From Escherichia coli (GTDB taxonomy: Bacteria > Pseudomonadota > Gammaproteobacteria > Enterobacterales > Enterobacteriaceae), in assembly GCF_003334355.1 (NCBI RefSeq), contig NZ_QOWP01000117.1: DNA of 300 bases; one strand, given 5' to 3'. The translations under genes were made by a program, and so were the position numbers. The notes under the pieces were generated by a model, which did no database searches, was not told the origin of the DNA, and saw only the letters and a list, made by a program, of their open reading frames with translations. This document shows, piece after piece, positions 2 to 299 of this stretch; positions within the stretch are counted from its first letter, which is position 1; each line of letters begins with the position of its first letter.

Positions 2-77
2 TGGTGGGTCGTGCAGGATTCGAACCTGCGACCAATTGATTAAAAGTCAACTGCTCTACCAACTGAGCTAACGACCC
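2..77 (-). tRNA. lysZ: tRNA-Lys (anticodon UUU), 76 nt including encoded 3' CCA
   Basis: Minus-strand read (77->2) is GGGTCGTTAGCTCAGTTGGTAGAGCAGTTGACTTTTAATCAATTGGTCGCAGGTTCGAATCCTGCACGACCCACCA. It folds as a canonical cloverleaf: 7-bp acceptor stem GGGTCGT/ACGACCC, D-stem GCTC/GAGC, anticodon stem GTTGA/TCAAT (one G-U), anticodon loop CTTTTAA with anticodon TTT, 5-nt variable loop, T-stem GCAGG/CCTGC with loop TTCGAAT, discriminator A, then CCA. It matches the E. coli tRNA-Lys sequence as I recall it. The symbol lysZ is tentative: it assumes the E. coli K-12 operon order and relies on my unverified recollection that lysY and lysZ are 146 bp apart, which would make this the downstream copy. 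Confidence 0.96.
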
Positions 78-93
78 ATATGGGTGTTACCTG

Positions 94-120
94 AAAGATT
101 TCTACTCGGAACCAATCTTT
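94..120 (-). other. AU-rich hairpin (7-bp stem, 13-nt loop) immediately after the CCA-AUUUUAA of the tRNA 3'-end remnant
   Basis: In RNA sense: AAAGAUU-GGUUCCGAGUAGA-AAUCUUU. The arms are exact reverse complements (plus strand aaagatt 94-100, aatcttt 114-120). The large loop and AU-rich stem make stability marginal. Confidence 0.3.
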
Positions 121-143
121 AAAATTGGTGGCTCGTGCAGGAT
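119..143 (-). repeat. Truncated tRNA-Lys 3'-end remnant: 3' half of T-stem, 3' acceptor strand, CCA and 7-nt downstream flank, duplicated inside the spacer
   Basis: Plus strand 119-143 (ttaaaattggtggctcgtgcaggat) versus 217-241 (ttaaaactggtgggtcgtgcaggat): 25 nt with 2 mismatches, at 125 (t vs c) and 132 (c vs g). Similarity stops abruptly on both sides (144 g vs 242 t; 115-118 vs 213-216 unrelated). The 5' partner strands needed for acceptor and T stems are absent upstream, so this is not a functional tRNA. Confidence 0.75.
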
Positions 144-197
144 GACTCGCTTCGCTCGCCCTACGGGCCGTTGCTGGCGTAACGTTATCCTTCACGC

Positions 198-220
198 TTA
201 ACATCTGAGTTTGATGTTAA
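198..220 (-). other. AU-rich hairpin (8-bp perfect stem, 7-nt loop) beginning 3 nt after the CCA of the upstream tRNA-Lys
   Basis: In RNA sense: UUAACAUC-AAACUCA-GAUGUUAA. The arms are exact reverse complements (plus strand ttaacatc 198-205, gatgttaa 213-220). There is no GC-rich stem and no following U-tract, so it is not a canonical intrinsic terminator. Confidence 0.4.
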
Positions 221-223
221 AAC

Positions 224-299
224 TGGTGGGTCGTGCAGGATTCGAACCTGCGACCAATTGATTAAAAGTCAACTGCTCTACCAACTGAGCTAACGACCC
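224..299 (-). tRNA. lysY: tRNA-Lys (anticodon UUU), 76 nt including encoded 3' CCA
   Basis: Positions 224-299 are identical over all 76 nt to positions 2-77 (checked base by base), so the same cloverleaf and TTT anticodon apply. On the transcribed minus strand this is the upstream copy. The symbol lysY is tentative for the same reason as above; if the source is not E. coli K-12-like, the paralog name could differ. Confidence 0.96.

Follow-up and report, generated by a model that had tools for sequence, protein, structure and literature searches.

The lysY–lysZ spacer and its tRNA-linked repeat

The window analysed here, a 300-nt stretch of E. coli DNA, carries two tRNA-Lys(UUU) genes that ARAGORN and Rfam find to be identical in sequence: lysY, the upstream gene by transcription (224..299, minus strand; Rfam tRNA 79.2 bits), and lysZ, the downstream gene (2..77, minus strand). 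Between them lies the 146-nt lysY–lysZ spacer of the lysT operon, at window positions 78-223. The 300 bases are matched at 100% in many E. coli chromosomes, ATCC 8739 and E. coli C among them. The lysT operon gives a single transcript (Agrawal et al. 2014, PMC4176162), and lysY, the spacer and lysZ are all transcribed from the minus strand within this polycistronic precursor. A sequence-only reading of the window had singled out positions 144-197 as the core of a transcribed spacer, which agrees with this setting; since transcription runs from the minus strand, the real RNA is the reverse complement of the one it described.

Other roles considered for the spacer were rejected. An internal promoter was rejected for want of any promoter-like site in the spacer, and an internal terminator because the sole terminator-like site (plus strand, 169-184) is arm H1 of the element described below, on the non-transcribed strand. 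A coding role was also rejected, as each of the two ORFs (54 and 28 aa) shares sequence with the tRNA genes and is mechanical. The same holds for a tRNA or tRNA pseudogene: ARAGORN finds lysY and lysZ only, and no Rfam tRNA match falls within the spacer up to E = 10.

It is essentially certain that positions 144-197 are the conserved core of a tRNA-linked repeat (TLR; Rfam RF00391, RtT) in the lysY–lysZ spacer. The TLRs of E. coli K-12 are reportedly treated by Egan and Landy (1978) and by Rudd (1999). Stenum et al. (2021, PMC8144298) count 22 copies in K-12, spread over ten loci that hold one to five each. In every copy the last 18-19 nt repeat exactly the 3' end of whichever tRNA or rRNA precedes it. 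The class is given "no known function" except for the 5S-linked RrA/B/F, and the same paper lists a delta-22 TLR strain from which all 22 have been removed. The element of the window agrees with this class in placement, ending and core. The unit begins at the first base past the lysY CCA, on the same strand, and window positions 143..126 match the lysY 3' end at 17 of 18 bases (18 of 18 in K-12). The core aligns with the Lys-, Arg-, Pro-, Tyr- and 5S-linked copies, the serX copy having been compared by eye, and the same core is found in K-12 after lysV, argV/Z/Q, proK, serX, tyrT/V and the 5S gene rrfB. Read in the RNA sense, the K-12 layout consists of a 5' arm, AA, CGUUGC-N4-GCAACG (H1), G, CCC-GNA-GGG (H2), H3 in the form C-GA-[hairpin]-GA-G, UC or UA, and the tRNA copy. 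The delta-22 strain table holds five TLRs (T, W, Y, Z and Q) in the lysT operon, and PGAP labels the sister copies in this operon 'RtT sRNA'. Because it matches the TLR class, the rows of the delta-22 table and the PGAP labels, the element is already catalogued; it is real and structured, and it is not a new sRNA candidate.

The Rfam RtT model matches the window with 47.8 bits (E = 1.6e-8; gathering score 45). All four long spacers that follow tRNA-Lys genes in K-12, and the lysQ trailer, score 46.7-60 bits, and copies of the tyrT/rttR type reach 114-137 bits. The alignment to the model (126-292) places its 5' half on the body of the lysY tRNA; these coordinates overstate the short-type element, because the 5' half of the model, a degenerate copy of a tRNA T-arm, aligns to lysY itself. 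The TLR unit proper is 98 nt long and runs on the minus strand from the first base after the lysY CCA to a pseudo-CCA end (126..223), as delimited by its presence or absence among strains together with the RtT match. Its 5' flank is an AU-rich hairpin (198..220, minus strand; UUAACAUC-AAACUCA-GAUGUUAA), an 8-bp inverted repeat with 100% complementarity that appears in the MFE fold and, by sequence comparison, is specific to the lysW and lysY copies. At its other end lies the 18-nt copy of the tRNA-Lys 3' end (126..143, minus strand; AUCCUGCACGAGCCACCA), seen as a direct repeat of 119-143 with 217-241 at 92% identity, which runs 7 nt beyond the CCA. Within the copy, the outer stem P1 takes its 3' arm from 134-143, which leaves 126-133 as a free tail ending in CCA. 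The unique 3' part of the spacer (78..125, minus strand) remains in strains without the TLR, and a hairpin in it at 111-129 overlaps the pseudo-CCA end. The window allele differs from K-12 at two points, one in H1 and one in the tRNA copy, where the window has GAGCCACCA and K-12 has GACCCACCA. The sequence-only reading missed two things, the catalogued repeat and the tRNA 3'-end copy just beyond the region it delimited.

Fold and covariation of the core

Three small motifs and a GC-richer composition had been reported for the core from the sequence alone, and this observation stood in all but the placing of one motif. The hairpin GCCC-TAC-GGGC does lie at 158-168 and the palindrome TAACGTTA at 180-187, and positions 144-197 have 63% GC vs 33% at 78-125 and 27% at 198-223. 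The CTCGC direct repeat had been placed at 145-149 and 152-156, which is wrong; its two copies are at 146-150 and 155-159. Judged from the single sequence, the three motifs are not beyond chance: of 5000 dinucleotide-shuffled sequences, 8.6% contained an all-GC hairpin of 4 bp with a loop of 3 nt, 22.9% a palindrome of 8 nt, 28.6% a direct repeat of a 5-mer, and 0.9% all three. Taken alone, the 54 nt of 144-197 fold at -14.0 kcal/mol (z = 0.08), with 103 of 200 shuffles folding equally well; the spacer as a whole does a little better than chance (z = -2.75).

It is only through comparison with other family members that the motifs gain significance. The hairpin at 158-168 is arm H2, invariant across all family copies examined, the CTCGC pair forms the two flanks of the covarying arm H3, and the palindrome is the 5' strand of arm H1. 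At this last place the window reads CGTTAC, and K-12 and almost all other copies read CGTTGC. The palindrome exists only because the window allele has CGUUAC for CGUUGC, a difference that also breaks a G-C pair of H1, and by this comparison it is a by-product of an allele-specific G→A change.

The ~71 nt from 196 to 126 (196..126) are predicted to fold as a four-way junction made of P1, H1, H2, H3 and an 8-nt CCA-ended tail, a model that is well supported. The 5' arm of P1 (CGUGAAGGAU; 187..196, minus strand) pairs with 134-143 in RNAalifold and was also identified by a swap test. H1 (CGUUAC-GCCA-GCAACG; 169..184, minus strand) was defined by family comparison and by compensatory changes in the lysQ/lysV-type (Q-type) copies; its position 180 is A in the RNA sense for the G of the family, which leaves an A.C mismatch. 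H2 (GCCC-GUA-GGGC; 158..168, minus strand) was recognised by its invariant stem in the family comparison, and its loop is G-N-A, with all four bases occurring at N across the family. H3 (C-GA-GC-GAA-GC-GA-G; 146..158, minus strand), which contains opposed G.A/A.G positions, was identified by covariation. The H1 mismatch weakens the fold of the window allele, whose z of -1.22 against shuffles is not significant (-1.95 for K-12).

As judged from the aligned copies, the junction is conserved by compensatory changes across Enterobacterales. RNAalifold applied to 22 Lys- and Arg-linked copies independently returns P1, H1, H2, H3 and the free CCA-ended tail. In this alignment 99.3% of cells are paired; shuffles give 93.2%, and sliding the partners gives 55% at most. 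Its covariation score of 0.162 (vs 0.047) was reached by none of 500 shuffles. With 44 copies the score is 0.228 vs 0.085 in shuffles (0/500 reach it) and at most 0.10 with partners slid. All three H3 pairs tested, of 12 pairs in the tested structure, switch on both sides in the 44-copy alignment: pair 40-54 is CG in 21 copies, GC in 15, AU in 3, UA in 3 and UG in 1, and pairs 36-58 and 39-55 switch likewise. In the 5S-linked copy the opposed G.A/A.G positions of H3 are replaced by G-C pairs, as expected because those positions would face each other in the helix. Pair 3-64 of P1 is UA in the 12 Lys copies, GC in 9 Arg copies and AU in the one from Pseudescherichia vulneris. In this species the tRNA-Arg 3' end is CCUCCUGG, not CCUCCCGG, and the T-stem change of the tRNA is mirrored in the 3' copy of the TLR and compensated by a G-to-A change in its 5' arm. 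The H1 of Q-type copies comes in five different compensating stems. P1 is clear in Lys, Arg and Tyr copies and unclear in those linked to Pro and Ser and in the Q-type. As they never vary, H2 and the main-type H1 give no covariation evidence, and the invariance of H2 is partly imposed by the search pattern, which was the H2 core. The suggestion that the core is a structured RNA module is thus borne out by helices that covary.

Which strand functions is less firm. The sense strand is favoured, though not proven, because it is in this orientation that the H3 loops read GNRA or GNA and because G.U pairs are tolerated on it (pair 6-61 is GU in 3 copies). G.U and A.C pairs number 6 vs 7, a count that favours neither strand. 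On the antisense strand H2 reads as a cUNCGg tetraloop hairpin.

Distribution and turnover

Representative bacterial genomes were scanned with the H2 core ACGGCCCGNAGGGCGAG. The matches listed were mostly chance hits in GC-rich genomes, and true copies were sorted out by an upstream tRNA and a copy of its 3' end; the taxonomic range is a sample, not a census. True TLRs among the matches listed came from Citrobacter, E. albertii, Enterobacter, Superficieibacter, Pluralibacter, Erwinia and Pseudescherichia. Within the same listed matches, the upstream tRNA, where assignable, was always tRNA-Lys, Arg or Pro, and nearly all copies were exact to the tRNA end of their own species, three deviating by 1, 2 and 4 bases. 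On these alignments, the 18-nt copy tracks whichever tRNA lies upstream, even where that tRNA differs from the one in E. coli. Within Enterobacterales, the copies with an assignable tRNA show at most 2 mismatches in 18.

Individual units are present in some strains and absent from others. At least 80% of the spacer is present in 4067 of 5426 complete E. coli genomes, and the evidence for empty sites consists of such coverage statistics and one verified empty site. This site is in strain NRZ105822, whose lysY–lysZ spacer of 48 nt differs from window positions 125..78 by a single SNP, so that exactly the 98-nt unit 126-223 is missing there. The same strain is also without the lysW–valZ and lysZ–lysQ units. 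ATCC 8739, which has the allele of the window, is without the lysW–valZ TLR (51 nt at 3086-3136 of its extracted locus vs 149 nt at 2420-2568 of the K-12 one), and the deletion ends exactly at the tRNA-end copy. The real tRNA end and its copy make up an 18-25-nt direct repeat, and it is inside this repeat that the break points of unit loss fall. The empty sites of E. coli are most simply read as losses by recombination between these direct repeats, and as losses in particular because the full unit is also found in Klebsiella, at 85-88% identity.

Units can also be repeated in tandem. E. coli EC1 has two tandem trailer TLR units after lysQ (753-1034 of the extracted locus), with a terminator copy in each; PGAP labels both 'RtT sRNA, processed from tyrT transcript' despite their position in the lysT operon. 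The serX trailer of K-12 has three complete copies of a 181-nt unit, each including a terminator. There, GCGGGC-U-GCCCGC could compete with H2 (GCCC-GCA-GGGC), and an H1 of the CGUUGC type is absent. No genuine phage with the unit was found, the three 'phage' matches being chromosome-sized or chromosomal contigs, and almost no true plasmid carries it, most 'plasmid' matches being again chromosome-sized or chromosomal contigs. Three plasmid-sized, non-mobilizable records have TLR-like sequence: NZ_CP079601.1 (121 kb, at 16-114), NZ_CP093469.1 (14 kb) and NZ_CP098226.1 (50 kb).

Core-like copies were also seen outside the catalogue. An Alcanivoracaceae MAG (JARGOL010000002, ~7300-7723 of the extracted locus) has two tandem 156-nt units directly upstream of tRNA-Ser(GGA), each opening with a copy of the tRNA-Ser leader and 5'-most 22 nt, as far as the D loop, after which comes a TLR-like H1-H2-H3 core. 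This arrangement is the mirror image of that in E. coli and gives no Rfam RtT hit. Salinicola endophyticus (5856 and 8169) and Pseudomonas sp. PA27 (11010; positions in the extracted loci) have copies in which the core shows H1, GCCCGAAGGGC and GAG-hairpin-CGAG, with a shared CUACCUGCG before it and a shared GAGUAAUGCUCAUUUAC after it; ARAGORN finds no tRNA gene in these 10-14-kb loci, and the copies have no Rfam match at gathering threshold. A Holophagaceae MAG (8548) and an Acidobacteria MAG (858; again positions in the extracted loci) contain core-like copies after ...CCCACCA and a hairpin, with GGA in the H3 loops; in the Acidobacteria MAG the same flanking sequence stands on either side, which suggests a tandem array. 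The copies in Acidobacteria likewise have no tRNA close by. A long-type TLR architecture with an extra AAAAUYGU-GGGAAC-RAUUUU hairpin is seen in Zophobihabitans entericus (after tRNA-Pro UGG) and in a gammaproteobacterial MAG (after tRNA-Ser UGA); in both, the tRNA 3' copy is decayed after 7-10 nt. None of the core-like copies from Zophobihabitans, the gammaproteobacterial MAG, Salinicola, Pseudomonas, Acidobacteria and the Alcanivoracaceae MAG reaches the Rfam RtT threshold.

These copies make it tempting, if doubtful, to see in the TLR core more than a passive spacer: an ancient RNA module under structural constraint, able to join itself to the ends of stable-RNA genes and occurring far more widely than the E. 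coli catalogue or Rfam RtT shows. If this were true, the module would have a specific role, whether in the processing of stable RNAs or in mimicking a CCA-ended tRNA, or a dedicated route by which gene ends are copied.

Processing, function and relation to known RNAs

RNase P separates the tRNAs of the lysT operon in 3' to 5' order, and RNase II and PNPase have been proposed to trim off the long 3' trailers that the Lys pre-tRNAs carry; RNase E plays a minor part, cutting the long spacers only if RNase P is defective, and the wild type shows 'surprisingly few' processing intermediates (PMC4176162). Northern probes in the lysY–lysZ spacer reportedly revealed only species I and II, which are large precursors, in RNase P mutants (PMC4176162); we treat this as a weak negative because the binding positions of the probes are known only from the authors' description. 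Other members of the family do yield discrete processed RNAs, namely RrA/B/F from the rrn operons, which bind Hfq and CsrA in vitro, and RttR from tyrT, of the same repeat family; the 3' end of RrB maps 3 nt past its repeat copy (PMC8144298). Annotation also lists rttR as a small RNA. The sequence-only reading had taken the core for a stable spacer-derived RNA that might act as an sRNA sponge. Its first half, a structured and possibly processed RNA, is plausible by analogy with these family members; the sponge is unsupported, as set out below.

The reading we consider likely is that the core belongs to a minus-strand TLR that forms a four-way junction and is a structured passenger of the operon, would not act through sRNA base-pairing, and would be dispensable as a single copy. 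As the long 3' trailer of pre-lysY is removed, the GC-rich junction and the duplicated 3'-end processing context would be expected to yield a discrete tRNA-sized by-product or a pause point. Such a by-product would resemble in origin RttR and RrA/B/F from other family members. The conservation of the structure suggests some function beyond what 'passenger' names.

A trans-acting, protein-binding role, in which the RNA would be a decoy of tRNA enzymes by virtue of its CCA-ended shape or would titrate CsrA or Hfq in the manner of RrA/B/F, is unlikely. The junction with its covarying helices, its conserved non-Watson-Crick positions, its CCA tail and its tRNA-like size of 71 nt would suit such a role, as would the retention of the family from Escherichia to Klebsiella and Erwinia, and RrB does bind CsrA and Hfq in vitro (PMC8144298). 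However, the predicted CsrA-binding score of the 19 tRNA-linked TLRs is below 0.01 (PMC8144298), and the H3 loop of the lysY copy is GAA, not GGA; none of its hairpin loops (GCCA, GUA and GAA) has the GGA motif. Neither ARAGORN nor the Rfam tRNA model sees a tRNA in it, its tail has 8 nt vs 4 nt in the tRNA acceptor end, and single copies are freely lost.

We think it quite improbable that the element is explained at the level of DNA, either as a selfish cassette that moves to, and duplicates, the ends of stable-RNA genes or as a sequence merely swept along in unequal crossing-over between tandem tRNA genes. The att sites of T-loop-targeting integrases begin in the tRNA T loop, and the TLR copy starts there too. 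Moreover, a single core is joined to six different RNA genes with a matching 18-nt end each time, tandem arrays occur (serX x4, tyrV x3 and, in strain EC1, lysQ x2), presence and absence between strains are clean, and the Alcanivoracaceae MAG has the mirror-image form with the 5' end of tRNA-Ser. Against this, the search of phages and plasmids gave no genuine phage and almost no true plasmid with the unit, an associated enzyme gene was not seen, and the locus is old rather than recently invaded. The covariation, the sense-strand G.U of pair 6-61 and the GNRA/GNA loops in the sense orientation fit selection on the RNA.

That the spacer works as an sRNA sponge, with RNase P and RNase E releasing a stable fragment that binds Hfq and sequesters sRNAs by pairing, is very unlikely. 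Its appeal lies in precedent: E. coli has spacer-derived sponges, 3'ETS-leuZ being annotated as one, the TLR relatives RrA/B/F are pulled down with Hfq (PMC8144298), and the AU-rich flanks resemble RNase E sites in sequence. The analogy with 3'ETS-leuZ fails on pairing, however. Paired with the spacer, the unit or the core, RyhB, RybB and MicF give duplex energies within chance (z from -1.5 to +1.4), whereas 3'ETS-leuZ with RyhB, the positive control, lies far outside (z = -4.7); the screen is crude, covers these three sRNAs only, and missed the known RybB site in the control. A weightier point is that the core has no conserved single-stranded site at which an sRNA seed could pair: its conserved columns are helices or 1-2-nt junctions, and its loops vary. 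The spacer has no terminator with a U tail. RNase E, as noted, is minor in this operon, and the spacer probes are reported to show precursors only (PMC4176162); the element is absent from some strains, and a strain without any of the 22 TLRs could be built. Finally, the spacers go unmentioned in the interactome papers searched, including the main texts on RIL-seq and TRIC-seq, where multi-mapping reads were possibly discarded. Since the core is multi-copy, RNA-seq, CLIP and RIL-seq pipelines that discard such reads would miss it, and the repeat could have dropped out of the interactome data in this way.

The idea that a neutral spacer acquired the three motifs by chance, which the shuffles (9-29% for each motif) and the fold of the region (z = 0.08) would allow, can be set aside almost completely. 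The comparative data refute it: over 40 non-identical copies of the core are spread over different genera and show compensatory changes.

The main outcome is therefore a correction: the structured core is already catalogued, and the analogy with a sponge is best abandoned unless expression data show otherwise. TLRs have been without an assigned function since 1978, and the comparative evidence offers testable handles, namely the compensated four-way junction, the tRNA-end copy that co-evolves with its tRNA, and the retention of the family from Escherichia to Klebsiella despite the free loss of single copies.

Among known systems, the closest are the other TLRs of K-12. The lysY copy likewise stands directly after a tRNA gene, ends in the 18-nt copy of that tRNA's 3' end and shares the core AACGUUGC-N4-GCAACG-GCCCGNAGGGC-GAG-hairpin-CGAG, and its K-12 orthologue is among the 22 catalogued. 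TLRs of the tyrT, proK and serX types have extra 5' hairpins and a partial T-arm copy, and the short-type lysY copy is without both. RttR (rtT RNA), the 171-nt tyrT-tyrV product, has the family, the core arms and the 3' tRNA-end copy in common with the lysY TLR; it differs in being of the long type (137 bits vs 48 for the lysY copy), linked to tRNA-Tyr and overlapping the annotated tpr ORF. RttR is reported as a discrete RNA, whereas no such report was found for the lysY copy; the original claim of a stringent-response phenotype for RttR has been withdrawn (PMC8144298). The 5S-linked RrA, RrB and RrF belong to the same family, with H1 and H2 conserved and H3 at the same position as in the lysY TLR. 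Their H3, however, is an extended G-C helix whose loop is GGA, the CsrA motif, whereas that of lysY is a 2-bp stem with a GAA loop. They also sit between two terminators after 5S rRNA. The tRNA-linked copies are predicted not to bind CsrA (PMC8144298).

3'ETS-leuZ is, like the lysY TLR, a non-tRNA part of a tRNA operon transcript. It is a unique AU-rich trailer that ends in the operon terminator and has a long match to RyhB, whereas the lysY TLR lies in an internal spacer, is GC-rich, folded and multi-copy, and has no such match. The tRNA cloverleaf itself resembles the modelled TLR in its four-way junction, short linkers, single-stranded CCA end and size of ~71 nt, and the 3' strand of the TLR is literally copied from the T and acceptor stems. 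The two differ in that the TLR has arms of 3-6 bp with 3-4-nt loops, a tail of 8 nt, and none of the features of a D-loop, T-loop or anticodon.
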